Assembly (NCBI GenBank): GCA_041661185.1
Contig: JBAZUV010000001.1
Span: forward strand, 35,616-99,615
Origin: Elusimicrobiota bacterium
Lineage (GTDB): Bacteria > Elusimicrobiota > Elusimicrobia > UBA1565
Direction: 5' to 3'
Length of the DNA stretch: 64,000 bases
Part shown: one piece after another, positions 33,952-55,227 of the stretch
Position numbering within the stretch: the first letter of the stretch is position 1
Layout of the letters: every line of letters starts with the position of its first letter
The notes under the pieces: model-generated
Database searches by the model: none
What the model was told of the DNA's origin: nothing
What the model saw: the letters and a program-made list of their open reading frames with translations, nothing else
Program-made: the position numbers and the translations under genes

Positions 33952-34863
33952 CTAGAATAGCTTCTTGAAGACTTCGTCGGGACAGTCTTTCTGCGGCAGA
34001 TGTCCGCAGTCCGGATAGCGGAAGAGGCGGGCGCCTCGGATGCCGGAGGCATAGCGCTCGCTGATGGACGCGGGGAGCAGCCCGTCGGGCTCTCCCAGGA
34101 TGACCACGGTCCGAGCGCGGATCCCTTTGAGCCGGCCGTCGAGCAGCTCCTCTTTTCGCAGGGCCGCGACCATCTCGGGCGCGCGGCGCTCCCGGATGCC
34201 TTCGGCGGCTTGAGGGAAGACGTTGGAGGGAGGCAGGGGCTTGGAGGGGTGGGCCTTTTGGAAGAAATCCTTCATCTTCTCAGGCGTGGGATCGGCGAGC
34301 GTCCGCGCCGTCTGTTCAGCCAAGCCGCTGGGATCGTCGAGGCCCGCGGCGTTGAGCAGGAAGAGCCTGTCGGTCCCCGAGGGCCACTGGAGCGCGATGT
34401 CCGCGGCGATCCAGCCGCCCAGGCTGTTGCCGACCAAGGTCCAGCGAGGGCAGGTCCCGGCCAGGGCCTCGCGGACCGTGCGCGACATCGGACGTATCCC
34501 ATAACCTTCCAGGGACGCGGGCGCGGCGGAGGCTCCTACTCCCGGCAGGTTGAAGGCGAAGAGCTTGTATCTGCGGGGAGTCTTCCGCTCCTTTGAATCC
34601 ACCAGGAGATCGCTCCAGGTATCGGCGGAATCTCCCAGACCGTGGATGAACGCCACGCAGGCGCAGTCCGCGTCGCCGGCGGCGCAGGTATCGCGGGAAA
34701 GGACCTCGAGTCCGCCGATGCGCGCGTGCCGCACTCCTCCGGACCATAGCTTCGCATTGAGGATGAACCCGTGGAGATCGAGAGGCCTTTGCCAGACCCA
34801 GAGGCCGAAGGCCGAGAAGAGCAGCAGGCACGCCGCGCACGCGCGCAGGATCGTTCGTTTCAT
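33952..34863 (-). CDS. alpha/beta-fold hydrolase with N-terminal membrane anchor/signal peptide
   Basis: Track ORF trimmed to MKRTILRACAACLLLFSAFGLWVW at 34863. It has the oxyanion region FIHGLGDS, the nucleophile elbow GNSLGG and a C-terminal His in ..CGHLP. Confidence 0.8.
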   Translation of the reverse strand: MKRTILRACAACLLLFSAFGLWVWQRPLDLHGFILNAKLWSGGVRHARIGGLEVLSRDTCAAGDADCACVAFIHGLGDSADTWSDLLVDSKERKTPRRYKLFAFNLPGVGASAAPASLEGYGIRPMSRTVREALAGTCPRWTLVGNSLGGWIAADIALQWPSGTDRLFLLNAAGLDDPSGLAEQTARTLADPTPEKMKDFFQKAHPSKPLPPSNVFPQAAEGIRERRAPEMVAALRKEELLDGRLKGIRARTVVILGEPDGLLPASISERYASGIRGARLFRYPDCGHLPQKDCPDEVFKKLF

Positions 34864-34927
34864 GAGGGATTTATTATCGCTGTTGCGGCCGTGTTTGCGC
34901 AAGGAGATGCGTCTGGGCGTCATGCCG

Positions 34928-34947
34928 TTGTCAAATGGAGTTCATCC
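34928..34947 (+). promoter_or_regulatory. candidate Pho-box-like operator upstream of the response regulator gene
   Basis: TTGTCAaatggaGTTCATcc is two TGTCA/GTTCA half-sites at 11-bp spacing, 54 nt upstream of the ATG at 35001. Compare the E. coli Pho box CTGTCAT-N4-CTGTCAY. Confidence 0.4.
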
Positions 34948-35000
34948 GGCCGCTATTGGCGAGGCGAGGTTTTTCAGGTATCCTCAAAGAGGGGTGCCCC

Positions 35001-35675
35001 ATGGGTGGAGAAAAGATATTGGTCGTCGAGGACGAGAAGGATATCGTCCGGCTCTTGCGCTACAACCTGGAGAAGGAAGGCTACTGCGTCGCGGCCTGCC
35101 ACGACGGAGAGGCCGCTCTCGAATGCTTCCGCAAGGAACGCCCCGACTTGGTCATCCTGGACCTCATGATCCCCAAGCTCGACGGCATCGAGGTCTGCAA
35201 GCTCCTGCGGCAGTCCTCCCAGGTCCCCATCCTCATGCTCACCGCCAAGAAGAGCGAGGTGGACCGCATCCTGGGTCTCCGGATCGGAGCGGACGACTAC
35301 GTCACGAAGCCCTTCTCGGTGGGGGAACTCCTGGCTCGCGTGCAGGCCTTGCTGCGCCGCGCCGCGCATCCTGTCGTGAACGCCTTGCGCGCGGGGGCTC
35401 TGGAGATGGACTTCGAGCGCCATGAGCTGCGTCTTGAAGGAAAGCCGGTTTCGGTGACTCCCAAGGAGTTCGAGTTCCTCAGGCTCCTCGTGCAGTCGGA
35501 CGGGAAGGTCCTCACCCGCGAGGAGATCCTCGAACGCGTATGGGGATACGACCGTTCGATGGACATCGACACGCGCACCGTCGACCAGCACATCGCCCGT
35601 CTGCGCCGCAAGCTCGGAGCGGAAGGGGAGCGCATCCTCACGGTCACCAACGTGGGCTACCGTTTCCGTCCGTGA
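35001..35675 (+). CDS. OmpR/PhoB-family response regulator
   Basis: Track ORF trimmed to MGGEKILVVEDEKDIV at 35001 (AGAGGGG SD upstream). LVILDLMIPKLDG, ILMLTAK and GADDYVTKPF form the receiver. The winged-helix output has LTPKEFEFLRLL....G.V.TREEIL..VWG.......RTVD.HI.RLR.KL. Confidence 0.9.
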   Translation: MGGEKILVVEDEKDIVRLLRYNLEKEGYCVAACHDGEAALECFRKERPDLVILDLMIPKLDGIEVCKLLRQSSQVPILMLTAKKSEVDRILGLRIGADDYVTKPFSVGELLARVQALLRRAAHPVVNALRAGALEMDFERHELRLEGKPVSVTPKEFEFLRLLVQSDGKVLTREEILERVWGYDRSMDIDTRTVDQHIARLRRKLGAEGERILTVTNVGYRFRP

Positions 35676-37426: not shown

Positions 37427-37450
37427 GCGTCAAAAAAAAGGCACGCCTTC
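37427..37450 (+). promoter_or_regulatory. 24-nt motif shared with the porin-pst promoter region (candidate Pho-type operator)
   Basis: GCGTCAAAAAAAAGGCACGCCTTC here versus GCGTCAAAAAATGTTCACGCGTTC at 44917-44940 (19/24 identical by eye). It lies 39-62 nt upstream of the phosphatase ATG. Confidence 0.4.
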
Positions 37451-37488
37451 GGCAAAGGATCCCAATACGGCGCTGTTACCATTCCCTT

Positions 37489-38988
37489 ATGGAAAGGAAA
37501 TGGTCCTTCGCTCATGCGGCCCTTCTGCTCATCGTGCTTGCGCCGTGCGCTCCGGCGGCGCCGCCCCCTTTGACCGTCGTCTTCGTCGTCGACCAGATGC
37601 GCGCGGATTATCTCGCGCGCTTCGGCAAGGAGTTCTCGGGAGGCTTCGCTCGGTTCGTCAAGGACGGGGCGGTCTTCGAGAACGCCCGCCAAGCGCACGT
37701 GCCGACGACGACCGCCGTCGGACACGCGGCCATCGGCACGGGACGCTTCCCGGCCCAGCACGGGATCGTGGGCAACGAGTGGTGGGACAGGACTCTGGGA
37801 CGCATGAGAGCATCCGTCGAGGACGAGGAATACGGCCGCAGCCCCCTCAATCTCCGGGACGAGACGTTCGGCGACATCCTCAAAGCCGTCCGTCCGGCTT
37901 CGAAGGTGATCAGCCTTTCCGGGAAGGATCGAGGAGCCGTTCTTTTGGGCGGCCGCCGCCCGGACCTTGTGCTCTGGTTCAACAAGAGCGCCGGACAGTT
38001 CGTGACGGACACGTATTATGGTCGGATGCCCGATTGGGTGTGGGACTGGGATGCGCGGCTCTCCATCCCCCTTGCCGAAAGGGATGGATTCATGGAAAGC
38101 CCGCGCTTCGATGCGCTGCTGCTCGAACTCGCCGGAAAGACGGTCGAGAACGAACGGCTGGGGCTGGGGAAAGGGCGCAGCGATCTTCTCTTTATCAGTC
38201 TTTCGGGCACCGATATCATCGGGCACAAGAAAGGGCCCGACAGTCCGGAGATACGTGAACAGCTTCTCGGCCTGGATAAGAGCCTGGGAGCCTTCCTCTT
38301 TTATTTGGACGGCCGTCTCGGCGAGGGGCGATATCTCGCGGTCTTGACCTCGGATCACGGGGTCACGTCCATGCCCGAGAGCGCCGATGGCCGCTCCAAG
38401 GGAATCCGACGCATCCTGCAATCCGAGTTGGAGGATGAAGTAGAGGCGGCTCTGCGCAAGAGGCTGGGCGAACCCGGTCTTCTCGACCGCTGGCTGCTGG
38501 GATTGAGGTCCCCGAACGTCTATCTCAATAAGCCCCTGGCTCTTGAGAAAGGCATGGACGATCGGCTTCTCGCCGAAGCCGCGGACATCTTGGGAAGCCT
38601 GCCCGCCGTCTTGGCGGTCATGCGGCCCGAGGACCTCTTGGCCGCTCGCGCCGAAAAGGGCCCGTATGAGGAGATCTTTCGCAGAAGCTTCTATCCCGCT
38701 CGTTCGGGGGACCTGCTGGTCCTTTTAAAGGAGAACATGCTCGTCGCGGGTCTTCCGGGAGAGACCAGCCACAGCCTTCCCTACGACCAAGATTCCCGCG
38801 TGCCGCTGGTCTTCATGGGAGAGGGGATCGTTCCCGGAAGATACCCGGCGCAGGCCTTGGGCACGGATATCGCTCCGACCGTGTCCTCCTTTTTGGAGAT
38901 CCCGTTCGAACCGGCGGCCGGAAGCCGGGTGCTCAAGGAAGTCCTGGCAGAGGACGCGCTCGGTGCGCAGTCCAAGAGGCCCTCATGA
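37489..38988 (+). CDS. alkaline phosphatase-superfamily enzyme (PafA / nucleotide pyrophosphatase-phosphodiesterase type), secreted
   Basis: Track ORF 37201..38988 trimmed to MERKWSFAHAALLLIVLAPCAPA (signal peptide). VVFVVDQMRADYL, VPTTTAVGHAAIGTG..PAQHGIVGNEWWD, ..SGTD.IGH..GP and LTSDHG match type I phosphodiesterase/NPP and PafA-like phosphatases. Confidence 0.85.
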   Translation: MERKWSFAHAALLLIVLAPCAPAAPPPLTVVFVVDQMRADYLARFGKEFSGGFARFVKDGAVFENARQAHVPTTTAVGHAAIGTGRFPAQHGIVGNEWWDRTLGRMRASVEDEEYGRSPLNLRDETFGDILKAVRPASKVISLSGKDRGAVLLGGRRPDLVLWFNKSAGQFVTDTYYGRMPDWVWDWDARLSIPLAERDGFMESPRFDALLLELAGKTVENERLGLGKGRSDLLFISLSGTDIIGHKKGPDSPEIREQLLGLDKSLGAFLFYLDGRLGEGRYLAVLTSDHGVTSMPESADGRSKGIRRILQSELEDEVEAALRKRLGEPGLLDRWLLGLRSPNVYLNKPLALEKGMDDRLLAEAADILGSLPAVLAVMRPEDLLAARAEKGPYEEIFRRSFYPARSGDLLVLLKENMLVAGLPGETSHSLPYDQDSRVPLVFMGEGIVPGRYPAQALGTDIAPTVSSFLEIPFEPAAGSRVLKEVLAEDALGAQSKRPS

Positions 38989-41828
38989 AAAGACCCATCG
39001 CCGTCGTCCTCGCCGCGTCGCTCGCGGTCCTGCAGCCCGGAGCGCTCATCCAAGAAGCCCGCGCGCAGGTCTCGGCACGGATGGCCGGAGCGAACGTCGT
39101 TCTTCCGGGACAGCTGTCGATCCCCGCCGTTTTGGCCCCGATGGAGGAAGGACAAGGAAGCCTCCCTGCTCACTCGGCCGGCATGGGCCTTTCGCTGCCT
39201 CTCATGGATGTTCAGGCGCCCGCCGCGCTCGTCCCGACGTCCTCGATCGGGGAGGCGCCGATCCTTCCTTCGTTCGAGGACGCCGCTGTCGCGAAGACGG
39301 AGCATTCGGCGGGATCATCGGTCTCGGCGAAGCCTCGCGCCGTCGTGGAAGCGAAGAGAAGTCCTTCCTCGGACCGCCCGTCCTTGATCGATACCCTGCG
39401 CGGCTTCTGGACCGAGCGCTCGAAGAAAACGGCTTTATCTCATCCGGCTGCCGCGGAGTCCTTGCCGGAAAAAGGGCGGGCTCTTTTCGATGGAGACAAG
39501 CTGAGGGCGTATCTTCTTCGCCCGGACGGCACGCATTCCTCCGTGAGCTGGGAAGGACTTCCGGCCGTTCTGGCCGCCGATCCTGATTATAGGGAGGCCC
39601 TTGCGCGCAAGGGCCGCATACGCCTTATCGTGGACAAGAACGCCGCTCCCGGCGGATTTTCCGCCGGGGATGCGCAAGCGATCGCGGACATCCTGGCCGG
39701 ATCCGGGATCTCCCGCGGCATCGAGGTCGAGAATCTGGGCAAGGCTCCGAAAGAGACGCCGATATCCTCGTCCGGCGTCGGAGAGTCTCCCGTGCGCAAG
39801 AGCGGCGGGGTCCTCTCATCCTTGCCGGTGCTCAGGGAGGTCTCCTTCCTGGCGAGGAATCTCTCCGCGTCCATGCGCAAGCTCGAGCGTTCCGAGGTCA
39901 CCGCGGGGCTGCTGTCGAGCCTTCCGGGCTTCATCAACAGCATGATCTTCTACGTCGCGCTGTTCTTGCCCCAATACCGGGCGTCATTCGCGGCCATGGT
40001 CGCCTTGACCGTGCTCATGAAGGCGATCCACAACGTGGGCGTCGGCATCTGGACGAGCTTCCAGAACCGGCTCATGCTCCAGCGAGGAAGCTCCTATCTC
40101 ACGACCTTCAATTTCGGCTACGGACAATCCACGGCCGCGCTCTATCGCGCGATCGCCTGGTCCGCCCGTCCCAGCGCCACCCTCCCTCCCTGGGATATCC
40201 GGTATTGGCGGGATATGTCCGTGATGAGCGTCCTGGGCACCGTGTTCTACACGATCGGGAACATGGCGGCCAACGAACTCTACAACAAGGGGCTGCTCTC
40301 CAGGCGGGGGGTCACCTTCCTCCAGCAGCTGCGCGCCGGGGTCGGCGACATCGACGGGATATTCTACAAGGCCGGCTTCATGGGCTTTTTCTGGATCGCC
40401 TTCGCGATCCATCAGTTCCTGGACCTCGCGCTCTATCCTCTCGCCGCCTTGCTCAAGGCCCGTCCGATACTCACCCTCGCATCCGAGGACGTCGCCTCCA
40501 CGAAGGAATTCAGCGACCTTTACCTTCCGCATGCCGACGCGGCGGGTTCTCCCATGAAGCGGCTGCGCCAAGCCTTGCTCGGCGCTCCGTTCATCGCGCA
40601 GTTCGTCTCGATCGCGCGGTTCCTAAAAAGGCGCTTGGGGAGGCTCTTCGCTCCTGCCGCCTTGTCCGCGGCCGTTGCGTTTTCTCCGCAGATCTTGGCG
40701 TCCGCCTATGAGCAAGGGGCCGCCGGCACCGCCTCCCAACCCATCGAAAGAGTCCTCTCGCGCCTGCCGCGCCTGACCCCCGTGCTCGACGCCTCCGGAA
40801 AGGCGAAGATCATCGCCGACAGCGTGGCCCAGCCGGTGCTGACGGACTACCCCGACGGAGGGCTGGGGGTCTTCAAGCCCATCCGCATGCCCAAGACCGA
40901 TCCGAAATACAAATATGAGTGCATGAAGGCGCTCTGCGAAGTGGTCTCTTCCCATATCGCCGCGAAGATGGGGGTCCCCACCGTACGCTACCGCCTGGCG
41001 CACGCCGATATCGACGCAGAGGAGCATATCGGCGTGGTGACGCCGTATCTGCCGTCCCTTAAGACGCTCGTCGAGGCTCCGGAACTCGCCGATCACATCG
41101 TCAACGCCGAGGAGTTCACTCGCGGGGCGGTCATCGACGCGTGGCTGGGGAACACCGACCGCATCATCAGCCGCAAGAACGTATGGGTCATCGAGGACAA
41201 GGGCGAGGCGAGGGTCCTCTTCGGCGACTATGATCAGACGTTCAGGCCGCACGCCGCGCTCTTCGGCATCCCGAAGACTCAACTGCAGCTTCTGCCCCGC
41301 TACGCGAAGCCCGAGACGCTGCGCCGCATCCTGGCCGATATCGCCAAGCTCGACGATAAGACGATCCGGGCGTGGGTCGGGGAAGCCTTGTCCCTGAGCG
41401 GGGGGATCGGCGACGGTTGGGGGGAGTATTTCTCCGAGGTCCTCATCGACAACCGCGACGAGCTCGGCGGAACCCGCGCTTTCGACGAGCTCCTTTCCGG
41501 CCGGAAGCCCCGCATGAGCCTGAGCGCCCCCGCGGCTGCCTCGCTGGCCGACAAGGTCCTCGCGGGGCAAAAAGACCCCTCGCGCATCGGCGCGCAAGTC
41601 GATGCGGCGATCAAGAGGATGGAGATCTATTTCAGCACCAACGGCGACCTGCGGGCGCCCATGAGAACGCTTCTTGAGGAACTTGCCCGACGCCGCTTGG
41701 CCCAAGAGGACGGCCCCTACGAGTTCGCCGAAGGCGACTTGACGCTCCTGGCTCCGCTCATCCACTTCGTCTGGTCGTCCTTCGAGCCCGCCGAAGCCAT
41801 CGGCGGCGGCCTCGAATACCATCGGTGA
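38985..41828 (+). CDS. large signal-peptide polytopic membrane protein with C-terminal atypical kinase domain (type II PI4-kinase-like motifs)
   Basis: 947 aa. Start overlaps the phosphatase stop (ATGA). Signal peptide MKRPIAVVLAASLAVLQPGALIQEARAQ, about 280 aa with no recognised domain, then several hydrophobic helices at about aa 300-580. The C-terminus has GLGVFKP, VIDAWLGNTDRIISRKNVWVI and LFGDYDQTF. These resemble PI4K2A AVFKPK, LDYIIRNTDRGNDNWLI and AIDNGLAF. Confidence 0.8.
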   Translation: MKRPIAVVLAASLAVLQPGALIQEARAQVSARMAGANVVLPGQLSIPAVLAPMEEGQGSLPAHSAGMGLSLPLMDVQAPAALVPTSSIGEAPILPSFEDAAVAKTEHSAGSSVSAKPRAVVEAKRSPSSDRPSLIDTLRGFWTERSKKTALSHPAAAESLPEKGRALFDGDKLRAYLLRPDGTHSSVSWEGLPAVLAADPDYREALARKGRIRLIVDKNAAPGGFSAGDAQAIADILAGSGISRGIEVENLGKAPKETPISSSGVGESPVRKSGGVLSSLPVLREVSFLARNLSASMRKLERSEVTAGLLSSLPGFINSMIFYVALFLPQYRASFAAMVALTVLMKAIHNVGVGIWTSFQNRLMLQRGSSYLTTFNFGYGQSTAALYRAIAWSARPSATLPPWDIRYWRDMSVMSVLGTVFYTIGNMAANELYNKGLLSRRGVTFLQQLRAGVGDIDGIFYKAGFMGFFWIAFAIHQFLDLALYPLAALLKARPILTLASEDVASTKEFSDLYLPHADAAGSPMKRLRQALLGAPFIAQFVSIARFLKRRLGRLFAPAALSAAVAFSPQILASAYEQGAAGTASQPIERVLSRLPRLTPVLDASGKAKIIADSVAQPVLTDYPDGGLGVFKPIRMPKTDPKYKYECMKALCEVVSSHIAAKMGVPTVRYRLAHADIDAEEHIGVVTPYLPSLKTLVEAPELADHIVNAEEFTRGAVIDAWLGNTDRIISRKNVWVIEDKGEARVLFGDYDQTFRPHAALFGIPKTQLQLLPRYAKPETLRRILADIAKLDDKTIRAWVGEALSLSGGIGDGWGEYFSEVLIDNRDELGGTRAFDELLSGRKPRMSLSAPAAASLADKVLAGQKDPSRIGAQVDAAIKRMEIYFSTNGDLRAPMRTLLEELARRRLAQEDGPYEFAEGDLTLLAPLIHFVWSSFEPAEAIGGGLEYHR

Positions 41829-43519
41829 GAGAGGACTCCGTTTTGAATAGGCCTTCATCGACAGCCGAGGTCTTGGGGCCGGTTTTGGAGACGCTCGATG
41901 AGTTCGGCCGAGACGTCGGCTGGGGCCATATGCCGCCGGAACCGCTCGAAGCGCCCGTCTCCATCGACGAACTCCAGATCGACTTCACCCCTTCCCCCGC
42001 GGATTGGAGGGACCAGATCCTCTATTCCGTCATCATCGACCGGTTCAGCCGCGCCCGTCCGTTCAAGAGATGGGGCGATCCCGCCGACGGACGCACGCGC
42101 CACGGCGGGAACATCCGAGGACTCATCGAGCGGCTGGACTATCTGAAGGGCTTGGGCGTCACCACGCTGCAGATCAATCCGATCTTCATGAATCCGCCGG
42201 CCGGCTACCACCAATATTGGCCCGTGCATTTCCTGGCGGTCGACCCGCATCTGGGCACGATGAGGGACTTCAAAAAACTCGTGCTCGAGGTTCATCGGCG
42301 GGGCATGTACATCGTCATGGACATGGTCTTCAACCATACGGCGCCGATCATCCAGTACGACGGGGACGTCCGGTTCGGCCCGCGCAAGAGCGTCAAGCGC
42401 TGGCGCTATCTGCTCAAGCCCGTGGAACTCGCCGATGAGCGGCATTACAGCCTGCGCGGAGACATCAACGATTGGCATGACGCGCGGCAGTGCGCCGAGG
42501 GAGACCTCCCCGGAGGCATCAACCGCCTGCGCACGGAGGACCGCTCCACCCAGGACATCCTCCTCAAGATCGCCAAGTGGTGGATACGGGAGACGGACGT
42601 CGACGGATTCCGCCTGGATGCCTATCCCCATGTGTCCAAAGACCTCTGGACCCGCGTCTTCAGCGAGATCCGGGACTATGCCGCGAAGCTCGGCAAGCGG
42701 GACTTCCTTCTCATGGGGGAGCTTTTCGACGGGGATCCGCGGCATTACGTCGGAGAGCTCCGAAACGGCCGGCTCAGCGCCGCCTACAACTACCCCGCGT
42801 ATTTCTGGAACAACGCGGCCCTGCACGCGCAGGCCGCTCCCGAGGCGCTTGCCCAAAGCCATGAGGCCTTGTCTTCGCTGCTGGGGGACCGGCTCCACTA
42901 CATGGTGAATTTCATCAGCAACCATGACCGGGTCCATTTCCTCAAGGAGAACGACGACGCCGGCCTGCTCCGGTTCGCGCTGGGCTGCATCCTCACGGAC
43001 ATCGGGATCCCGTATCTATATGGAGAAGAGCAGGCGCCTCGGCAGGTTCCCGGAAGGGAGCTCTTGGATGTGGAGGCTCCCCGCGAGGACCGCTTCATCC
43101 AGGGACGCTTCAAGAATCCTTGCTCTCCCTTGGACGGGTTTTCCACGGGCTCTCCCGAATACCGGTTGATGAACGCGCTGATCCGGGTCCGCAAGGACGT
43201 CGCCGCTTTGCGCCGAGGCGAGAAGCATGTCCGCTGCGCCGAGTCTCGGGGTCCGGGTCTCTACGTTTTCAGCCGGATCCACGAAGGCCGGGAAGCGCTC
43301 GTGGTCCTCAACAGCGCGAACGAGCCTCGCGGCGCGCGGGTCTGGGTGGATTCCAGCCTCACCCCTGCCGGCACGCGGCTCATCGACGCGCTCGACGCGG
43401 AATATTCCTCGACCGCGTTCTCCGAGGATGGGAAGGGCTCCCAAGTCGAGGTCCAAGCGCCCGCCTACGGCGTGCGCATCCTGCTGGAAGAACGTCCGGG
43501 AGAGCGCCATGAAGGATAG
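41825..43519 (+). CDS. GH13 alpha-amylase-family glycoside hydrolase (no signal peptide)
   Basis: A GTG start overlaps the upstream stop. It has the four GH13 regions: DMVFNHT, GFRLDAYPHV (nucleophile Asp), a GELF-type region (LLMGELFD) and FISNHDRV. Confidence 0.9.
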   Translation: MREDSVLNRPSSTAEVLGPVLETLDEFGRDVGWGHMPPEPLEAPVSIDELQIDFTPSPADWRDQILYSVIIDRFSRARPFKRWGDPADGRTRHGGNIRGLIERLDYLKGLGVTTLQINPIFMNPPAGYHQYWPVHFLAVDPHLGTMRDFKKLVLEVHRRGMYIVMDMVFNHTAPIIQYDGDVRFGPRKSVKRWRYLLKPVELADERHYSLRGDINDWHDARQCAEGDLPGGINRLRTEDRSTQDILLKIAKWWIRETDVDGFRLDAYPHVSKDLWTRVFSEIRDYAAKLGKRDFLLMGELFDGDPRHYVGELRNGRLSAAYNYPAYFWNNAALHAQAAPEALAQSHEALSSLLGDRLHYMVNFISNHDRVHFLKENDDAGLLRFALGCILTDIGIPYLYGEEQAPRQVPGRELLDVEAPREDRFIQGRFKNPCSPLDGFSTGSPEYRLMNALIRVRKDVAALRRGEKHVRCAESRGPGLYVFSRIHEGREALVVLNSANEPRGARVWVDSSLTPAGTRLIDALDAEYSSTAFSEDGKGSQVEVQAPAYGVRILLEERPGERHEG

Positions 43520-44204
43520 TCCGCTCATCGAGTTCGATCCTGGGGTCCTGCGGGGACTGCGGTCCTGCAGGGTCCGGCCGAGCCGGAGCGATCGCGCGTA
43601 TCTGGCGACCAAGACCTTCGGCGTCAATCTCGCCGTGCGCGGTGCTTTCGCGCTTTCCGGCATCCACGGCGGAGCTTCGGCTGCGAGGGTCGTCTGCGCG
43701 TTGTCCTGGCATCAGCTCCAGGACGCGGCCTGCACGCTCTACGGCCGGTCCTACTTGAACCTGCTCGCACGCGCAGCCGGAGGATTGAGGATCGCCGGAC
43801 GCGGCATCGGGGACCTCGTCTTCGTCTACGTCCAAGTCAGCGCTTCCGAGGTCCTGACCCGCCTCATCCTGGGTCCCGTCGGCAATACTCCCTCGGCGCT
43901 GACCCTTGCCGGCCTCGGGATGGTCTTCCTGAACGTCGGGCAGGGCATGATCGCCGGAGGCTCCATCATCCCGGCGATCAATCAGGTGCGCAAAGCCGGC
44001 TTCATCGGAGAGCGAGCGTGCATGCACATCTACCAGCTCTCCGGCCTGACAATCCACCTCGGACTCCTGGCGACTTTCGGATACCAAGCCCTCCATGCCT
44101 GGGCCACCGCGGCGCTCTCCATCGCCTCCTGGTCCTTCTATGCCGTTGCCGTGGCGATCGATAGGGGGACGGATCTGCCCAAGGGAAGCCGCCTCCAGGT
44201 TTGA
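43509..44204 (+). CDS. hypothetical membrane protein
   Basis: Track ORF 43227..44204 trimmed to MKDSPLIEFD at 43509 (11-nt overlap with the GH13 gene). It has several hydrophobic segments (..LTLAGLGMVFLNVGQGMIAGGSIIPAI.., ..LSGLTIHLGLLATFGY.., ..AALSIASWSFYAVAVAI..). No recognisable family. Confidence 0.6.
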   Translation: MKDSPLIEFDPGVLRGLRSCRVRPSRSDRAYLATKTFGVNLAVRGAFALSGIHGGASAARVVCALSWHQLQDAACTLYGRSYLNLLARAAGGLRIAGRGIGDLVFVYVQVSASEVLTRLILGPVGNTPSALTLAGLGMVFLNVGQGMIAGGSIIPAINQVRKAGFIGERACMHIYQLSGLTIHLGLLATFGYQALHAWATAALSIASWSFYAVAVAIDRGTDLPKGSRLQV

Positions 44205-44231
44205 GCGCCCGCGGCGGGGCAAACGAAACGA

Positions 44232-44263
44232 CCCGGAGGGTTTCCCCTCCGGGCCGTTCTTTT
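44232..44263 (+). terminator. rho-independent terminator ending the four-gene operon
   Basis: Stem CCCGGAGGG / CCCTCCGGG with loop TTTC, followed by CCGTTCTTTTGG. Confidence 0.6.
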
Positions 44264-44278: not shown

Positions 44279-44830
44279 TCAGTAGTCCAAGCGGGTCTCC
44301 GAGGTCAATTCGAAGACCTGCGTCTCAAGGATCTCGCCTGAAGGGCTCAGGAGTTCGACTTGCAGCTTATTGAGTCCCGCCTGCAAGGGGAGCATCTGGA
44401 CCGCCCCATAGTAGCCATAAGGGATCTCATAGCGCTCCGGACGGAGCGCGCTGGTCAACGGGACCTTGACCGGGCCTTCGTTGCCGACGAAGTTCATCAT
44501 CGGCGGGAGGAAGGCGGAGATGGGATGGGTCCCGTCGGAATCCCTGCTCTGCACGGAGATCGACAGGTTGCTCACCCGGACGCCGGTCGTTCTTGTTTCC
44601 GTATGCCGGATCACGGCATCGATGCTGCCGCAGCGGTCCCCGTGTCCGGGGATGACGCACTCGAAGCTCAGTTCTTGCTGCAGTTCAAGGGTCACGCTTC
44701 CGAGGGCGTAGGTCCCTTGGCGCGAAGGCGCCTGCGCGGGAGACGCCGACTGTCCCATCACGGAGTCCCCGAAAGCGGCGAATACGAACAAGGCTGCAAG
44801 GCTCGATACGACCCCGATCTTCTTCATCAT
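44279..44830 (-). CDS. hypothetical secreted protein
   Basis: Track ORF trimmed to MMKKIGVVSSLAALFVFAAFG (signal peptide) at 44830, with a strong AGGAGGAGA SD just upstream. No recognisable domain. Confidence 0.6.
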   Translation of the reverse strand: MMKKIGVVSSLAALFVFAAFGDSVMGQSASPAQAPSRQGTYALGSVTLELQQELSFECVIPGHGDRCGSIDAVIRHTETRTTGVRVSNLSISVQSRDSDGTHPISAFLPPMMNFVGNEGPVKVPLTSALRPERYEIPYGYYGAVQMLPLQAGLNKLQVELLSPSGEILETQVFELTSETRLDY

Positions 44831-44874
44831 GTCTCCTCCTTGATTTCCCGACGCTTCAAGTATATCCATCCGGT

Positions 44875-44940
44875 TTGACGTTCAGGTGACGGCGGGAGAA
44901 CGACGGCATGACCCCCGCGTCAAAAAATGTTCACGCGTTC
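44875..44940 (+). promoter_or_regulatory. six consecutive 11-bp units carrying TGAC/TCAC-type hexamers (candidate Pho-box array) in the divergent promoter region
   Basis: TTGACGttcag GTGACGgcggg AGAACGacggc ATGACCcccgc GTCAAAaaatg TTCACGcgttc, with strict 11-bp phasing. It lies between the divergent secreted-protein gene (start 44830) and the porin-pst operon (start 45049). Confidence 0.45.
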
Positions 44941-45048
44941 GAGGCGCGGCCGCAATGGGTTTTCTCCGGGAGGACTGCTTGAATATCCTCGATGCTAACG
45001 CCGAGGATGAGCGCTCCGCGCTCCCCTCAATGACAGGAGACACTCATC

Positions 45049-46188
45049 ATGAAGAACGCCGCGGTCTGGGCCTTGCTGGTCTTCGGGCCGATCCTTCCGA
45101 CGCAGGCGCAGGAATTGAAGCTCTCGAGCCATCTTGAGAGCGTGAAGTTCAGCGGAGATTTCCGCCTTCGCCAGGAGAACTTCAAGAAGATGACGCCCAA
45201 CAAGTACGACCGGAACCGGGAGCGGTTCCGTCTGCGCCTGGGCGTCGAGGTCCAGTTTCCCAACCAGGTCCTGAGCGTGTTCCGCTTCGCTTCGGGCACC
45301 GGCGAGCAGGTCTCCACCAACCAGACCTTCACGGGCATCGGCAGCCAGAAAGGCATCTACATCGATCAGGCCTATCTCGCCTGGCGGCCTTCCTTAGGAG
45401 AGAACGGCAGCGCCTATCTTCAATCGGGCCGCATGCAGAACGCTCTTTGGCAGACGTATTCCTCGGATGCGCTATGGGACGCGGACTTGAACCCGGAAGG
45501 GGTCGGGGAAGGGATTGAATATCTGTTCCCGGACACCGGGGTGAGCCTCTTCGCCAACGCGCAGCAGATGGCCGCGGCGGAGTCGGCCAACAACACGGCG
45601 CGCCCGTTCTGCTTGAGCCAGCAGCTCGGGTTCGAGACGCGGCTGCCGGTCAAATCGCGACTGCGCATGGCCGCGGCCTACCACCACTGGACGAACGTCG
45701 ATGCCTTCGCCTTCGGCCAGGGCGTCACCCAGGACGGGAACCGGCGCTATTCGACGAACGTCCCGAAGAACCTCTTCGGAGTGGGGGAAGTCACGGCGGA
45801 GCTGCGCTCCTGGGTCGGCCGCCTGCCCCTCTCCGTGCAGGGCACCTATCTCAACAACCTGCGCGCCAGGGACAATCTTGGGTCCGCGGAGAACTACGGC
45901 TACCAGACCGGCTTCATCCTGGGGAAAGCCTCCGGCGCGAAGACCTGGGAGGCCGCGTACTTCTACAAGTTCCTGCGCACCGATGCGACGATCGCCGATG
46001 CCGTCGATTCAGACTTCGGCAACGGCGGGACCAACCGCAAGGGCCATATCCTGTGGCTGGCCTACAGCCCAAAGGATTGGCTGCAGGTGAAGGCCAAGTA
46101 TTTCATCACCCGTCTGCTGGCGGACAACCAAGGCCAGACCGACGACGCGATCAACCGCGCACAACTGGACTTCCAGGTGAAGTTCTGA
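45049..46188 (+). CDS. outer-membrane porin (beta-barrel), first gene of the pst cluster
   Basis: Signal peptide MKNAAVWALLVFGPILPTQAQ, alternating amphipathic beta-strand pattern and a C-terminal ..LDFQVKF with terminal Phe. An AGGAGA SD lies upstream. Its position suggests a phosphate/anion porin. Confidence 0.8.
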   Translation: MKNAAVWALLVFGPILPTQAQELKLSSHLESVKFSGDFRLRQENFKKMTPNKYDRNRERFRLRLGVEVQFPNQVLSVFRFASGTGEQVSTNQTFTGIGSQKGIYIDQAYLAWRPSLGENGSAYLQSGRMQNALWQTYSSDALWDADLNPEGVGEGIEYLFPDTGVSLFANAQQMAAAESANNTARPFCLSQQLGFETRLPVKSRLRMAAAYHHWTNVDAFAFGQGVTQDGNRRYSTNVPKNLFGVGEVTAELRSWVGRLPLSVQGTYLNNLRARDNLGSAENYGYQTGFILGKASGAKTWEAAYFYKFLRTDATIADAVDSDFGNGGTNRKGHILWLAYSPKDWLQVKAKYFITRLLADNQGQTDDAINRAQLDFQVKF

Positions 46189-46211
46189 GAAAACATAGGA
46201 GAATGAAAACC

Positions 46212-47231
46212 ATGAACATCCTTAAGAATATCCGGAGATCGGCCGCTCTCCTCGTCCTGCTGGCCGCAGCCGCATCCGCCGCGCAAACGACGAACCTCAA
46301 TGGGGCCGGGGCCACCTTTCCCTACCCCATCTACTCCAAGTGGTTCGACGACTACCGGCAAGCGCGTCCGGACGTGCAGATCAACTACCAGTCCATCGGT
46401 TCCGGGGGCGGCATCCGGCAGATCACGGCCCGCACAGTGGACTTCGGCGCCACCGACGGTCCGATGACGGACAAGCAGCTCTTCGCCGTCGACGGGAAGA
46501 TCCTCCATCTGCCCACCGTGCTGGGCGCGGTGGTCCCGGTGTTCAACGTCAAGGGGCTCTCCGAACTCAACCTGAGCGGAGAGGTCCTCGCCGACATCTT
46601 CCTCGGCAAGGTCCGCATGTGGAACGACAAGGCTCTCGCCGACCTCAACCCCGGCGTCGAGCTTCCCTCCGCGCCCATCACGGTGGTCCATCGTTCCGAC
46701 GGGTCCGGCACGACCTACTGCTTCGTCGACTATCTGAGCAAGGTCAGTCCCGGATGGCTCAAGGGCGTCGGGCGGGGGACCTCCGTGAACTGGCCGGTCG
46801 GCCTGGGCGGCAAGGGCAACGAGGGCGTGTCGAGCATGGTCAAGGGCATGCCCGGGGCCATCGGCTACGTCGAACTCATCTACGCCAAGCAGAACGGCAT
46901 CGCGTATGCGTCCGTGCGCAACAAGGCGGGCCGGTTCGTGTCGGCGGATATCGAGGCGGTCACCGCCGCGGCGGCCGCTTCCTCCCGGACGATGCCCGCG
47001 GACTTCCGCGTCTCCATCACCGACGCGCCGGGCGAGAAGGCCTATCCCATCTCGACCTACACCTGGCTGCTCGTCTATCAGAAGAACACGGCTCCTCGCG
47101 GGGAGATCCTCAAGGGCTTCCTGCGCTGGATGCTCAAGGACGGACAGAAGAGCGCCGCGTCCTTGGGCTATGCGCCCCTGCCCGCCGAGGTCGCCGTGAA
47201 GGTCGCCGCGGCGGCGGAGACTCTGCGGTGA
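46212..47231 (+). CDS. pstS: phosphate ABC transporter substrate-binding protein
   Basis: Signal peptide, then GAGATFPYPIYSKW, NYQSIGSGGG and RSDGSGTT. The start is placed at the ATG 9 nt after the AGGAGA SD. An alternative ATG lies at 46203. Confidence 0.95.
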   Translation: MNILKNIRRSAALLVLLAAAASAAQTTNLNGAGATFPYPIYSKWFDDYRQARPDVQINYQSIGSGGGIRQITARTVDFGATDGPMTDKQLFAVDGKILHLPTVLGAVVPVFNVKGLSELNLSGEVLADIFLGKVRMWNDKALADLNPGVELPSAPITVVHRSDGSGTTYCFVDYLSKVSPGWLKGVGRGTSVNWPVGLGGKGNEGVSSMVKGMPGAIGYVELIYAKQNGIAYASVRNKAGRFVSADIEAVTAAAAASSRTMPADFRVSITDAPGEKAYPISTYTWLLVYQKNTAPRGEILKGFLRWMLKDGQKSAASLGYAPLPAEVAVKVAAAAETLR

Positions 47232-48199
47232 TCCCCGTCATCGCGCGCAGCATCGCGCGAAGCGGCGTCAAGAAAGTCGCCGGCCCGCGCGAGCGGGCCG
47301 GCGACCGGGTCTTTCAAGCCGCGCTCTGCGCGGCGGCCATGAGCGTCGTCGCGCTCGCGCTCGCGCTCGCCTGCCGGCTTTCCATCGATTCCCGCCTGCT
47401 CTGGAAGGCGATGGGGCCCGGCTTCCTCTGGGGCACGACCTGGGACCCCGTCGCCGAAGTCTTCGGCGCGCTGCCGTTCATCTTCGGCACGCTCGTCACT
47501 TCCGCGCTGGCGCTCCTCATCGCGGTCCCTTTGGGCATCGGCGCGGCCGTGTTCCTTTCCGAGATGGCGCCGCGCCGGGTCGCCGCGGTCTGCGGCTTCC
47601 TCATCGAGCTCCTCGCCGCGGTCCCCAGCGTCATCATCGGACTCATGGGCATCTTCGTGCTGGTGCCGGTCGTCCGATCCGTCGAACCGTTCCTCATCTC
47701 CACGCTGGGCCGGCTGCCTTTATTCTCCGGCTTCCCTTACGGAGTGGGCATGCTGAGCGCCGGACTCGTGCTCGCGATGATGGTGCTGCCCTACATCACC
47801 ACCATCACCCGCGAGGTGCTCATGACCGTCCCGAGCTCTCTTAAGGAAGGCGCTTTGGCCTTGGGCGCCACGCGCTGGGAGACCGTGCATACGGTCAGCC
47901 TTCCTTATGCGCGCTCGGCCGTCGTGGGGGCGGTGTTCCTCGCTCTGGGCCGCGCGCTGGGAGAGACCATGGCCGTGACCATGGTCATCGGCAATACGCC
48001 GAAGATCTCGGCTTCCCTGCTCGATCCCGGCTACAGCATGGCCGCGGTCATCGCCAACGAGTTCGCCGAGGCGACCTCCGACGCCTATGTCCATGCGCTC
48101 ATCGGCATCGGCCTGGTCCTCTTCGTACTGACGCTCCTCATCAACGGCTGCGCCCGCTGGATGATCCTCCGGCTCGCGCGCCCGGCGGGCGCGCGATGA
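47228..48199 (+). CDS. pstC: phosphate ABC transporter permease PstC
   Basis: A GTG start overlaps the pstS stop (GTGA). It has six TM segments and the EAA-type loop ..LKEGALALGATRWET... Confidence 0.95.
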   Translation: MIPVIARSIARSGVKKVAGPRERAGDRVFQAALCAAAMSVVALALALACRLSIDSRLLWKAMGPGFLWGTTWDPVAEVFGALPFIFGTLVTSALALLIAVPLGIGAAVFLSEMAPRRVAAVCGFLIELLAAVPSVIIGLMGIFVLVPVVRSVEPFLISTLGRLPLFSGFPYGVGMLSAGLVLAMMVLPYITTITREVLMTVPSSLKEGALALGATRWETVHTVSLPYARSAVVGAVFLALGRALGETMAVTMVIGNTPKISASLLDPGYSMAAVIANEFAEATSDAYVHALIGIGLVLFVLTLLINGCARWMILRLARPAGAR

Positions 48200-49047
48200 G
48201 ATTCCCCGACTACGCGCGGCGCAAGCAGGTCGACCGGTTCGCCACGGCGCTCTCGGCCGCCTGCGCGTTCTTCGCCCTCGCGGCGCTCTTTGCGATCCTC
48301 GGCTACATCGCGTCCAAGGGCGCGGCGGCCGTGAACTGGGATTTCCTCACCCAGCTCCCGAAGCCGGTCGGAGAGATCGGCGGAGGAATCGCCAATTCCA
48401 TCGTCGGGACCGCGAAGATCGTCGGCCTGGCCGCGCTGCTCGGAGGTCCCATCGGCATCCTGGGGGGCATCTATCTCAGCGAGTACGCATCTTCCCGCAC
48501 GGCTTTCTGGGTCCGGTATGCCGCGGACGCGCTCAACGGAGTTCCCTCCATCGTCATGGGGATATTCGCCTACTCCATCATCGTGCTGCCGCTCAAGCGC
48601 TTCAGCGGCCTGGCCGGGAGCATCGCTCTGGGAGTGATCCTCATCCCCATCGTGCTGCGCAATACCGAGGAGTTCATGCGCCTGGTCCCGCGCAGCGTCC
48701 GGGAGGGCGCGCTCGCCCTGGGCATCCCGCGCTGGAAGTGCGTTCTGCGCGTGGCTCTGCCCACCGCCGCGCCCGGCGTGCTCACCGGCCTGCTGCTGGG
48801 CATATCGCGCATCGCGGGGGAGACGGCGCCGCTCATCTTCACGGCTTTCGGGAACCGCTTCTGGGATCAAGGGATGCTGCACCCTATGGCGTCCCTGCCT
48901 CTGACGATCTATACCTACGCCATCTCGCCCTATGAGGATTGGCACCGCCAGGCTTGGGCGGGCGCCTTCATCCTGCTGATGTTCGTTCTGACGGCCAATA
49001 TCCTGGCCCGGCTCCTGATGAGGCGCCCCACCGGAGGACACTCATGA
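48196..49047 (+). CDS. pstA: phosphate ABC transporter permease PstA
   Basis: ATGA overlap with pstC. ..[14 protein letters not shown].....LP.A.PG..TG..L...R..GETAPL is typical of PstA. Confidence 0.95.
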
Positions 49048-49859
49048 TCCCGACGATCGAATCCGCCGTGCCGACCGAGAAGTCCGAGAAAGTCTCCGAG
49101 GAGGAGCGCCGCGTCATCCTCTCGGCGCGGGCCCTTCGGGCGGGCTACGGCGCGGCCGAGATCCTCAAAGGGGTGGACTTCCCCGTGCGTGAAAGGGTCG
49201 TCACGGCCGTCATCGGCCCCTCGGGCTGCGGGAAGTCCACGCTCATCCGCTGCCTCAACCGCCTTCACGAGAGCGTGCCGGGCGGCTGGTGCGAGGGGGA
49301 ACTCCTGCTCGACGGAGAGGATCTCCTGCGGATCGATCCCGTGCTCCTGCGCAGGCGCATCGGCATGGTCTTCCAGCGTCCTAATCCGTTTCCGAGCATG
49401 TCCATCCGCCAGAACGTGGCTGCCGGGCTCACGCTCAACGGCGTGCGCGCGCGCAGGGTCGTCGACGAGCGCGTCGAGCGCGCGCTCAGCGACGCGGCGC
49501 TCTTCTCGGAGGTCAAGGACCGTCTCGACGAGTCCGCCCTCGGACTCTCCGGCGGCCAGCAGCAGCGTCTGTGCATCGCCAGGGCGCTGGCCGTGGAGCC
49601 GGAGGTCCTGCTGCTCGACGAGCCCTGTTCGGCGCTCGATCCCATCGCCACGGCGCGCATCGAGGAGCTGCTCTTCGAGCTCAAGAAGCGCCTGACCATC
49701 GTGACGGTCACCCACAACATGCAGCAGGCCGCCCGCGTGTCGGACTACACGGCGTTCCTTCTGATGGGGGAACTCGTGGAGTGCGGCCCGACCCGGCAGG
49801 TCTTCACGCGCCCGGCGGACAAGCGGACCGAGGACTATATCACCGGCCGATTCGGCTGA
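49044..49859 (+). CDS. pstB: phosphate ABC transporter ATP-binding protein
   Basis: Track ORF trimmed to MIPTIES at 49044 (ATGA overlap). It has Walker [20 protein letters not shown], the signature [14 protein letters not shown], Walker B LLLDEP and the C-terminal [10 protein letters not shown] characteristic of PstB. Confidence 0.97.
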
Positions 49860-49869
49860 GGAAGGATCC

Positions 49870-50532
49870 ATGACCATGAAAAGGCATTTCGACGACGATC
49901 TCCAGGCGATGCGCTCCCGCCTGCTCGAGATGGGCGCGGCCTGCGAGGAGATGGTGCAGTACGCGCTCAAGCTCTTGGCGGAACGTTCCTCTCAATACAT
50001 GGACGAGGTGCGTCGAAGAGAGGATATCGTCAATCGATTGCACGTCGAGGTCGACGAGCAGTGCCTCCAGCTCATCGCGCGCTATCAGCCCGCCGCCGGC
50101 GACCTGCGCATGATCGCGGCCGCGCTCAAGATCAACTCGGACCTCGAGCGCATCGGCGACCAGGCGGTCAACATCGCCGAGAACGGGATGTTCTTCATCG
50201 CGCAGCCGCACATGATGCTCTTCCATGTCCCGCGCATGGCGGAGCTCGCCTGTTCGATGCTCAAGGACAGTCTCGACGCCTTCTCCCGCAAGGACGTGGA
50301 GAAGGCCCGCGCCGTGCTCCGCAAGGATGACGAGGAAGACGAGCTCAAGGGCCGCGTCTTCAAGGAGCTCATGGCGCTCATGCAGTCGGATCCTTCCACG
50401 ATACAGCGGGGGCTCGACATCATCCTCATCGCCCGAAACCTCGAACGCATCGCCGACCACGCCACCAACATCGCCGAGGACGTCATCTTCATGGTCGCGG
50501 GAAGGGATGTGCGGCACGGTGCGGGGCGTTGA
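49870..50532 (+). CDS. phoU: phosphate signaling complex protein PhoU
   Basis: 220 aa with two PhoU repeats, each having the ..DLERIGDQA.NIAE / ..NLERIADHATNIAED motif. Confidence 0.95.
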   Translation: MTMKRHFDDDLQAMRSRLLEMGAACEEMVQYALKLLAERSSQYMDEVRRREDIVNRLHVEVDEQCLQLIARYQPAAGDLRMIAAALKINSDLERIGDQAVNIAENGMFFIAQPHMMLFHVPRMAELACSMLKDSLDAFSRKDVEKARAVLRKDDEEDELKGRVFKELMALMQSDPSTIQRGLDIILIARNLERIADHATNIAEDVIFMVAGRDVRHGAGR

Positions 50533-55125: not shown

Positions 55126-55196
55126 TCCCGGGTGGTGTAACGGTAACACGCCAGCCTTTGGAGCTGGTTTTCCAGGTTCGAATCCTGGCCCGGGAA
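55126..55196 (+). tRNA. tRNA-Gln (anticodon UUG)
   Basis: Hand-folded cloverleaf. Acceptor TCCCGGG/CCCGGGA, D arm GTGT-AACGGTA-ACAC, anticodon stem CCAGC/GCTGG with loop CTTTGGA (TTG), 4-nt variable loop, T arm CCAGG-TTCGAAT-CCTGG and discriminator A. CCA is not encoded. Confidence 0.9.
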
Positions 55197-55227
55197 CTCT
55201 TTTCCGAGCTGCAGTCGGGGGACGATC

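Follow-up and report, generated by a model that had tools for sequence, protein, structure and literature searches.

What does a bacterium do with a phosphatase, a kinase-bearing membrane protein and an alpha-amylase-family enzyme that are encoded together next to its phosphate-uptake genes? The question is raised by a 64,000-nucleotide stretch of DNA from an Elusimicrobiota bacterium (assembly GCA_041661185.1, contig JBAZUV010000001.1, positions 35,616 to 99,615), called the window below, in which four genes that we name G1 to G4 all lie on the + strand at 37489-44204, between PhoBR-like regulator genes and a porin-pstSCAB-phoU cluster. The answer we prefer, and to which we give an even chance of being right, is that G1-G4 form one operon controlled by the adjacent PhoBR-like system and co-induced with porin-pstSCAB-phoU at low phosphate, when it would serve the scavenging of carbohydrate and organophosphate. 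Related loci show the operon to be a lineage-specific merger of two separately conserved partnerships, one of a membrane module with a glycoside hydrolase family 13 (GH13) enzyme (plus G4) and the other of a kinase-fused G2 with a phosphoesterase (plus PhoBR). The window has a base composition of ~65% G+C, and the same sequence is present in two public metagenome assemblies.

The gene order, derived from reading frames and domain scans (Pfam, NCBIfam), agrees with that proposed in a preliminary description made from the sequence alone, namely phosphatase, kinase-like membrane protein, GH13 enzyme and small membrane protein:

37489-38988, + strand: G1, Phosphodiest domain
38985-41828, + strand: G2, 947 aa, without Pfam or NCBIfam match
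41843 (TTG) or 41825 (GTG) to 43519, + strand: G3, GH13 enzyme, Pfam Alpha-amylase
43509-44204, + strand: G4, membrane protein of 231 aa, conserved unnamed family
44232-44263, + strand: intrinsic terminator closing the operon, between G4 and the convergent orfX; 9-bp stem with 8 G-C pairs, T-run, -24 kcal/mol, z = -3.45

G1-G4 as a predicted transcription unit

The arrangement of G1-G4 supports, in silico, a single operon. The G2 start overlaps the G1 stop in an ATGA (38985-38988) with AAGAGG 6 nt upstream of the start, and G3 and G4 overlap by 11 nt at 43509-43519. The preliminary description had all three junctions overlapping, which stands for these two and probably fails for G2/G3. A GTGA is present there (41825-41828), but its GTG start lacks a ribosome-binding site, and TTG 41843, which lies 7 nt past AGAGGA (41830-41835), has one and is the start chosen by the gene caller of an identical public contig; a 14-nt gap is therefore likelier than an overlap, and the junction is probably such a gap, still tight. 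The terminator at 44232-44263, already recognized in the preliminary description, is the sole strong one within 34.8-45.2 kb, and the terminator-like matches inside the cluster, including those in G2, are weak and no commoner than in shuffled sequence. One transcription unit is thus predicted from the tight junctions, the lack of a strong internal terminator and the one strong terminator at the end. At the other end, the stop of the phoR-like gene lies 62 nt from G1, as first described, and no hairpin is found between them (z = +0.63), so that read-through from phoBR is possible. The G1 ATG is without a Shine-Dalgarno sequence. The G+C content at third codon positions (GC3) of all four genes is 0.76-0.82, like that of neighbouring genes, and Rfam and tRNA scans found no RNA gene within or near the operon.

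The probable link to phosphate

The regulatory genes and sites on which the phosphate link is based are the following:

35001-35675, + strand: PhoB-like response regulator (OmpR/PhoB family), Pfam Response_reg and Trans_reg_C; start as called in locus L006
35672-37426, + strand: PhoR/PnpS-like sensor histidine kinase, HAMP-PAS-HisKA-HATPase_c
34930-34945, + strand: Pho-box-like site 5' of phoB, GTCAAATGGAGTTCAT, in a 77-nt region shared with a divergent alpha/beta-hydrolase gene
37427-37488, + strand: operon promoter region, with half-sites GTCAA (37429-33), GGCAC (37440-44) and GGCAA (37451-55) in 11-bp phase
44917-44941, + strand: Pho-box-like site 5' of porin-pstSCAB-phoU
45049-50532, + strand: Porin_5 porin gene, pstS, pstC, pstA, pstB, phoU

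Phosphate control of the operon is well supported in silico by two kinds of evidence, gene location and a shared motif. The PhoBR-like pair is the sole such pair beside pst-phoU in the 64-kb window; the regulator scores 224.6 bits against NCBIfam PhoB TIGR02154 (cut-off 296.2), and the kinase 398.8 bits against PnpS (cut-off 400) and 314.5 bits against phoR_proteo (cut-off 334.2), in each case just below the threshold. The pattern GCGTCAAAAAA-N4-CACGC-N-TTCG, zero copies of which are expected by chance, occurs in the window only at 37427-37451 and at 44917-44941, so that the G1 and porin-pst promoters have an identical 11-nt core and identical flanks, in agreement with the shared motif noticed in the preliminary description. 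GTCAAA-N4-GTTCA occurs exactly twice, 5' of phoB and of the porin gene. A looser pattern composed after these sites had been seen, so that its statistics are inflated, GTCAAA-N5-KKCAY, has exactly 3 matches in 64 kb where 0.12 are expected, a number that none of 100 shuffles reached. All three are on the + strand, intergenic and 5' of phoB, G1 and porin-pst, which supports in silico the proposal that the operon is tied to pst and to the two-component system next to it. Phasing of 11 bp is what is expected for regulators of the OmpR/PhoB family. Both phoB and the porin gene have stronger second and third half-sites than G1.

A -10-like GTTACCA (37475-81) lies 7 nt ahead of the G1 ATG, giving the layout GTCAA-N17-GGCAA-N19-GTTACCA-N7-ATG. 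The related arrangement GTCAy-N17-GTGAC-N19-GTTAYC-N7-start codon precedes the G2-type genes of loci L005 and L022, and a variant is found in L008. Such spacing points to a transcript whose leader is very short or absent, and this would account for the missing Shine-Dalgarno sequence before G1. The Pho link also recurs elsewhere: a PhoBR-like pair lies beside G2 homologues in L001 and L023, and in L023 GTCAY-N6-GTYA has 4 matches (0.27 expected), two of which lie 5' of the G2 homologue and in the pst region.

The operon resembles Pho-regulon operons such as E. coli phoA and pstSCAB-phoU or the B. subtilis PhoPR targets in adjoining a PhoBR-like pair and pstSCAB-phoU, in having direct-repeat-like half-sites in 11-bp phase common to the pst and phoB promoters, and in encoding a secreted phosphatase. 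It differs in its motif, which is of a GTCAA type, unlike the E. coli Pho box CTGTCAT, and is a candidate box for this phylum. To our knowledge, neither a GH13 enzyme nor a membrane-anchored kinase nor a G4-like membrane protein has been described in any Pho regulon. The preliminary description also took PafA phosphatases for typical Pho-regulon members, which does not hold as worded: the characterised Flavobacterium PafA is constitutive and phosphate-insensitive (PMC8812569), whereas G1 appears from its promoter to be phosphate-regulated. The case for phosphate control therefore rests on the motif and the gene location and not on the identity of G1.

G1 is a predicted PafA-like phosphatase

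G1 (499 aa, with a signal peptide) is predicted to be a secreted alkaline phosphomonoesterase of the PafA/PhoK type, in the NPP superfamily. It matches Pfam Phosphodiest (7.7e-40), PafA of PDB 5tj3 (3.3e-63) and PhoK (6e-60), and like these enzymes (PhoK being that of Sphingomonas) combines a Phosphodiest domain with a signal peptide. In an alignment to 5tj3 the Thr nucleophile, the two Zn sites and the Lys/Arg/Asn monoester-binding residues can all be recognized, through the motifs VDQMR, PTTTAVGH, GNEW, KDR, GTDIIGH, SDHG and TSHS. The Lys/Arg/Asn set of PafA-type enzymes marks phosphomonoesterases. Compared with PafA of Elizabethkingia/Flavobacterium, G1 is ~50 aa shorter and lacks a segment matching PafA 197-255; it scores 290.3 bits against the NCBIfam PafA equivalog (cut-off 650), matched in two stretches with the internal segment missing. 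Because it is shorter and falls far under the equivalog score, we call it PafA-like and not a PafA equivalog. PafA acts on soluble monoesters and permits growth on sugar phosphates as carbon source (PMC8812569).

G2 joins a membrane module to a kinase domain

G2 has no Pfam, NCBIfam or PDB sequence match. Its parts were delimited from conservation, hydropathy and structure prediction:

38985-39065, + strand: Sec-type leader, aa 1-27, from the translation; leaders are conserved in homologues
39480-39770, + strand: small conserved soluble domain, aa ~166-262, a conserved block in alignments A1 and A3
39831-40634, + strand: polytopic membrane module, aa ~283-550, with 4-5 peaks in the family hydropathy profile
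40737-41825, + strand: C-terminal kinase domain, PI4KII/HipA/CtkA-like, aa 585-947, from an AlphaFold2 (AF2) model, Foldseek and conserved motifs

A low-complexity linker rich in proline and alanine (P/A-rich) follows the leader, to ~39479. The small soluble domain, which has no Pfam match, is probably periplasmic, and is predicted to be alpha/beta, with a strand-helix pattern in a low-confidence model. In the membrane module the polar residues H349, W356, Q381, R388, N430 and R450 are invariant, and Q360, R367, N376, D480 and R493 are at least 90% conserved. An exhaustive profile search returned 134 representative clusters, nine of them full length; among the others are many proteins of 500-600 aa that match the N-terminal half only (leader, linker, soluble domain and membrane module) and proteins of 300-460 aa that match the C-terminal half only. 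Since relatives match either half alone, G2 is a fusion of two modules. A word-indexed protein search with G2 gave two relatives only, and word-indexed searches with a 50-sequence profile and a trimmed membrane-module profile gave nothing new, P/A-rich low-complexity words having probably saturated the candidate list.

The favoured topology places the N-terminus outside and the C-terminus inside, because of the Sec-type leader, a Lys/Arg-rich loop at 431-450 and a basic tail past the last hydrophobic helix. The full-length model has a mean pLDDT of 44.7 (~40 in the membrane part); it retrieved nothing significant in Foldseek and is unusable for fold assignment.

Modelled alone with AF2, the kinase domain reached a pLDDT of 79.8 and a pTM of 0.72. 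Its top Foldseek match is PI4KII-alpha (4hne_B, 3e-5, probability 1.00), followed by PI4KII-beta, HipT/HipA, CtkA, CotH, Fam20A and mTOR, and the top 50 matches listed are all kinases or kinase-like. TM-scores are only ~0.42-0.44. The model shows a bilobal kinase fold with an ATP-binding Lys, catalytic Asp/Asn and metal-binding Asp, consistent with a kinase. The corresponding motifs are VFK, GNTDR-x5-N-x-W and FGDYD, and relatives conserve VFK, (G/N)xDR-x5-N-x-W and GD(Y/F)(D/G). Across 34 kinase-domain relatives G138 and D164 (domain numbering) are invariant and K47, D141 and N148 are kept in at least 90%. HipA_2 is the sole Pfam family matched more than once (4 of the 34 relatives, best 5.9e-7), and only P0074 exceeds its cut-off (29.4 bits); the window domain, at E = 0.01 and 15.6 bits against a cut-off of 27, is not a match to the curated family. 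Profiles of G2 and of its kinase domain found nothing significant among PDB sequences except a 21-residue match to NEK1, which covers the catalytic-loop-to-DFG region. The domain shares with type II phosphatidylinositol 4-kinase (PI4KII), HipA/HipT, CtkA, CotH and Fam20 the VFK lysine, the NTDR...N.W catalytic loop and the GD(Y/F)D metal loop, and like PI4KII it is membrane-located; it differs from this group in its fusion to a bacterial polytopic membrane module and in its marginal sequence similarity. HipT, HipA and CtkA are protein kinases. The modelled fold does not fix the substrate, which could be protein, lipid or sugar; the structural neighbours of PI4KII-alpha, in the same neighbourhood as the G2 domain, include protein kinases (PMC3974213).

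Two known kinds of system were considered and rejected for G2. A HipBA-type toxin-antitoxin pair is contradicted by the lack of an adjacent HipB-type antitoxin gene (the neighbours are NPP and GH13 genes) and by the position of the kinase as the C-terminal domain of a 947-aa membrane protein. In a PADLOC scan for anti-phage defence, only a weak match of 45 residues was found, between the G2 kinase N-lobe and candidate PDC-M03A (2.5e-5), and G3 gave a generic GlgB-type match.

G3 and G4

G3 (558 aa from TTG 41843, 564 aa from GTG 41825) matches Pfam Alpha-amylase (1.6e-39) and, as closest solved relatives, the Geobacillus GTA (PDB 4e2o, 7.4e-51) and Anoxybacillus TASKA (5a2a, 2.1e-50) alpha-amylases, with which it shares the (beta/alpha)8 domain and the catalytic triad. 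Regions I-IV are readable as DMVFNH, DGFRLDAYPH, MGELF and SNHD with an Asp/Glu/Asp triad, as predicted for a member of the GH13 alpha-amylase family. G3 differs from GTA and TASKA in having no secretion signal and, as it has no N-terminal leader, is probably cytoplasmic, as the preliminary description had it; in other lineages the orthologues have a leader with a long P/A-rich linker behind it, or form one protein with the membrane module. The GlgE/TreS-Pep2 pathway was rejected as an assignment: G3 scores 71.8 bits against treS_nterm (cut-off 678), and the best 25 of 42 NCBIfam matches include none to a GlgE model. The likeness to TreS-Pep2 maltokinase/GlgE is that a kinase fold and a GH13 enzyme are encoded jointly, with a sugar-phosphate intermediate conceivable; the differences are that the G2 kinase is PI4KII/HipA-like and not APH/maltokinase-like and that most loci of the family have no kinase.

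G4 has moderately hydrophobic segments, in keeping with the membrane location first proposed, and a GC3 of 0.81; it has no Pfam, NCBIfam or PADLOC match. Homologues (1e-57 to 1e-64) adjoin membrane-module/GH13 genes in L011, L012, L013 and L020, and L017 has a split homologue of two open reading frames (ORFs), ~1e-28 each. An hhalign comparison of G4 with the G2 membrane module gave a collinear alignment of 146 columns (pairwise E = 0.0079, probability 5%), and direct BLASTP of G2 against G4 gave nothing. The G4 homologues at L012 15495-16538, L011 12617-13987 and L013 7833-9326 have an extra N-terminal soluble region of ~110-250 aa, which contains the motif VYPTRTYSEG...SPEDR, has no Pfam match and is absent from the window G4.

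Module proteins and exported GH13 partners were also seen to have a similar Sec-like leader, roughly K.LA..L.ASLL..QQG(L/F).V.EA.AQV, followed by 100-250 aa of low complexity rich in P, A and S. Such leaders are found in the window at 38985-39065, in L012 at 9494-9620 and 11104-11170, and at the GH13 N-termini of L009, L010, L014, L016 and L018; the window G3 and its L001 orthologue have neither leader nor linker. The shared leader and linker could be a common sorting or tethering signal.

Two separately conserved partnerships

The families of G2 and G4 were found, in the genomes searched, only in metagenome-assembled genomes (MAGs) of Elusimicrobiota, and in a genome scan with a 15-sequence alignment all 14 matches were Elusimicrobiota MAGs, a distribution that would by itself make an origin of the window in this phylum most likely. 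We compared 13 loci in which the membrane module lacks the kinase (L009-L021) with 8 kinase-fused loci including the window. All four genes together were found in no other genome examined, so that the four-gene neighbourhood is not conserved as such: the proposal that the four genes are one module stands for the transcription unit and gives way, for conservation, to two partnerships that have been joined. Literature searches that linked Elusimicrobia to amylase and phosphate, or dealt with HipA-like kinases in membranes, turned up no account of the gene set.

The first partnership is tied to alpha-glucan handling. A G3-type GH13 gene (1e-130 to 1e-152) is adjacent or within ~1.3 kb in nine kinase-less loci (L009-L014, L016, L018 and L020) and ~6 kb away in L021, so that module and GH13 occur together in 10 of the 13; a second GH13 with a Glucodextran_C domain is frequent in these loci, and G4 homologues are found in five (L011, L012, L013, L017 and L020). 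The module is fused directly to GH13 in P0031 (C-terminal) and P0018 (N-terminal). The GH13 partner in kinase-less loci has a Sec-type leader and a long P/A-rich linker, unlike G3 and its L001 orthologue. In L019 (1861-14347) the module comes after a 2546-aa ORF, parts of which weakly resemble subtilase and GH13, and is followed by genes for a MalK-type ABC ATPase, a sugar-binding protein and a permease. The genes conserved 3' of GH13 in L014, L016 and L018 have no Pfam match.

The second partnership is that of the kinase-fused G2 with a phosphoesterase (NPP, PAP2 or metallophosphoesterase), adjacent in 8 of 8 loci, with PhoBR in 3; the 13 kinase-less loci gave no phosphoesterase of these kinds. 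The kinase-fused loci, their phosphoesterases and their linked genes are as follows:

Window: NPP (G1); PhoBR, GH13, G4 and pst
L001: NPP; GH13 and PhoBR
L005: PAP2; no other linked genes of these kinds found
L008: NPP and PAP2; no other linked genes of these kinds found
L022: NPP; no other linked genes of these kinds found
L023: NPP; PhoBR and pst
L024: metallophosphoesterase; a glycosyltransferase of family GT2
L025 (contig fragment): NPP; no other linked genes of these kinds found

The order in L001, G2-GH13-NPP-response regulator-histidine kinase, is the window set minus G4, rearranged, and that in L023 is G2-NPP-PhoB-PhoR with pstS/pstC downstream. In L023 three genes with no counterpart in the window (5382-8012) lie 5' of the G2-NPP-PhoBR operon behind another GTCAY-N6-GTYA copy, and encode an NTP-transferase-like protein (also found beside the L001 cluster, 1e-133), an N-acyltransferase-like ORF and a PlsC-type acyltransferase (PDB 5kym, 2.9e-11). 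We take the last two to resemble olsBA, the genes for ornithine lipid, which is phosphorus-free.

Other features of the window

The ORF convergent with G4, orfX (44279-44869, - strand), lies between the operon and the porin gene; its product of 196 aa (183 aa as called in the identical public contig) has a hydrophobic segment at the N-terminus and matches nothing in Pfam or PADLOC. On the other side, the alpha/beta-hydrolase gene (33952-34923, - strand) diverges from phoB and may be co-regulated with it, the Pho-box-like site lying in their shared 77-nt intergenic region (34924-35000). Ahead of these genes the window carries on the + strand, in order, ftsH, glmM, pdxJ, glmS, an NAD(P)HX dehydratase gene and tsaE. 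A 518-aa ORF at 22467-24023 (- strand) has weak matches to the window's PhoR-like and PhoB-like proteins and may be a hybrid histidine kinase/response regulator. The region 24000-26400 (~2.4 kb) has a G+C content of 0.535 against ~0.65 elsewhere and contains short ORFs only, with no notable repeats and no Rfam match. A tRNA-Gln (anticodon TTG, 55126-55197) is the sole RNA gene detected in the window.

Discussion

The model we prefer runs as follows. At low phosphate transcription of the operon would start at the Pho-box-like promoter 5' of G1, and transcripts that read through from phoBR may contribute. The exported PafA-type G1 would remove phosphate from phosphomonoesters outside the cytoplasm, candidate substrates being sugar phosphates or phosphorylated alpha-glucan fragments, and the freed phosphate would enter through the porin and Pst. 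At the inner membrane G2 and G4 would together bind, pass or sense the carbohydrate part, the kinase domain of G2, cytoplasmic in the favoured topology, may phosphorylate a membrane-proximal carbohydrate or lipid or signal its presence, and the leaderless G3 would cleave or transfer alpha-glucosidic bonds inside the cell. The same logic of exported phosphatase, membrane component and cytoplasmic kinase is that of salvage by a periplasmic phosphatase with PnuC and NadR, which has no sequence relationship to the operon; the transport role of G2/G4 is here a proposal.

Several observations weigh against this model. The model gives no reason why the GH13 enzyme should be predicted to work on different sides of the membrane in different lineages. 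The L019 module has a complete ABC importer for a neighbour, which makes it less likely that the module itself is the transporter, and the kinase and phosphatase of one operon could instead act on the same substrate. The topology of G2 rests on hydropathy and charge counts because the membrane part of its model is unreliable. As to phosphate, the PhoB-/PhoR-like pair scores just under the NCBIfam cut-offs, the statistics of the three-site pattern are inflated, most membrane-module loci show no phosphate link, and the link is predicted from the sequence of an uncultured organism, with a motif that is a candidate Pho box for its phylum.

We consider it highly improbable that the four genes are independent neighbours with incidental overlaps and a common strand, and that G4 is perhaps not a real gene. 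The lack of a Shine-Dalgarno sequence before G1 would fit such a reading, as would the weak terminator-like matches in G2, though these are only at chance level; against it stand the ribosome-binding sites at the junctions, the one strong terminator at the end of the unit, the joint recurrence of partner genes in other genomes, and, for G4, coding-like GC3 and homologues at 40-49% identity in five other loci. An operon that does not respond to phosphate is also quite unlikely. In this account the two-component system beside it would be a paralogue of PhoBR that serves this carbohydrate or envelope module alone, and the proximity of pst would be coincidental, which would be consistent with the sub-threshold equivalog scores, with the weaker second and third half-sites at G1, with the two PhoR-like kinases that lie within 19 kb in L001, and with the phosphate independence of the characterised PafA (PMC8812569). 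It has to contend with the pair being the only one of its kind in 64 kb and lying beside pst-phoU, with the identity of the GCGTCAAAAAA core and CACGC-N-TTCG at the G1 and pst promoters, and with the recurrence of the G2-NPP-PhoBR-pst association in L023 with its own shared motif.

Other readings accept the operon and assign it a different task. Phosphate-sparing remodelling of the envelope or its lipids, an idea of the preliminary description (there as envelope glycan, lipid or polymer remodelling), has real evidence behind it; we regard it as unlikely and do not favour it over scavenging of carbohydrate and organophosphate. G2 would then be a PI4KII-type lipid or glycolipid kinase anchored in the membrane. 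Phosphate would be taken off membrane lipids or an envelope polymer by G1, a task that in other loci would fall to PAP2 or a PlcP-like metallophosphoesterase, and G3 and G4 would make or transport an alpha-glucosyl substitute free of phosphorus. The PAP2 family includes lipid phosphatases, and this reading draws on PAP2 and on the metallophosphoesterase with a GT2 glycosyltransferase as alternative neighbours, on the lipid kinase PI4KII-alpha as best structural match and on the pair before the L023 G2 operon that we read as olsBA-like. However, G1 keeps the Lys/Arg/Asn set of PafA, an enzyme of soluble monoesters (PMC8812569), the closest solved relatives of G3 are hydrolytic alpha-amylases, and the ancestral partners of the module (exported amylases, a MalK-type importer) point to the use of alpha-glucan and not to its synthesis; a kinase, moreover, consumes phosphate, a poor fit with sparing it, and with protein kinases among the structural neighbours of PI4KII (PMC3974213) the fold leaves the substrate unfixed. 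That G2 is a receptor-type Ser/Thr kinase, sensing an alpha-glucan or envelope cue and signalling in the cytoplasm through its HipA/CtkA-like domain, with G1, G3 and G4 co-regulated and mechanistically independent, has little probability in our judgement. The succession of leader, periplasmic domain, membrane domain and kinase would suit a receptor, as would HipT, HipA and CtkA among the top structural matches and HipA_2 as the only repeated Pfam family, but a kinase or other output domain is missing from most members of the family, the module-GH13 fusions point instead to a catalytic or transport partnership, and the invariable phosphoesterase neighbour, drawn from three unrelated families, points to a shared substrate.

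A bolder version of the scavenging model, which we hold to be doubtful, makes G2 and G4 an undescribed, Elusimicrobiota-specific membrane machine for alpha-glucan-type carbohydrates, whose polytopic core, maybe paired with G4 as a distant paralogue, is partnered with or fused to GH13. One branch would have gained a PI4KII-like kinase and an obligatory extracytoplasmic phosphoesterase, giving a phosphate-regulated cycle of phosphorylation and dephosphorylation on a carbohydrate or glycolipid across the inner membrane. If true, this would be a new kind of Pho-regulon function.

If only the ordinary part of our interpretation is true, the locus is a lineage-specific Pho-controlled operon with a PafA-like phosphatase and an amylase, a useful annotation and an unsurprising one. 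If the scavenging model holds, the operon would enlarge the set of genes that a little-studied phylum is known to deploy against phosphate starvation, and G2 would show that bacteria, too, can have a PI4KII-like kinase as part of a polytopic membrane protein. Two families without a Pfam or NCBIfam model would also become approachable in function for the first time, by way of three genomic clues that are independent of one another: the fusion of the module to GH13, the constant pairing of the kinase form with a phosphoesterase from one of three unrelated families, and the recurrent linkage to PhoBR and pst.

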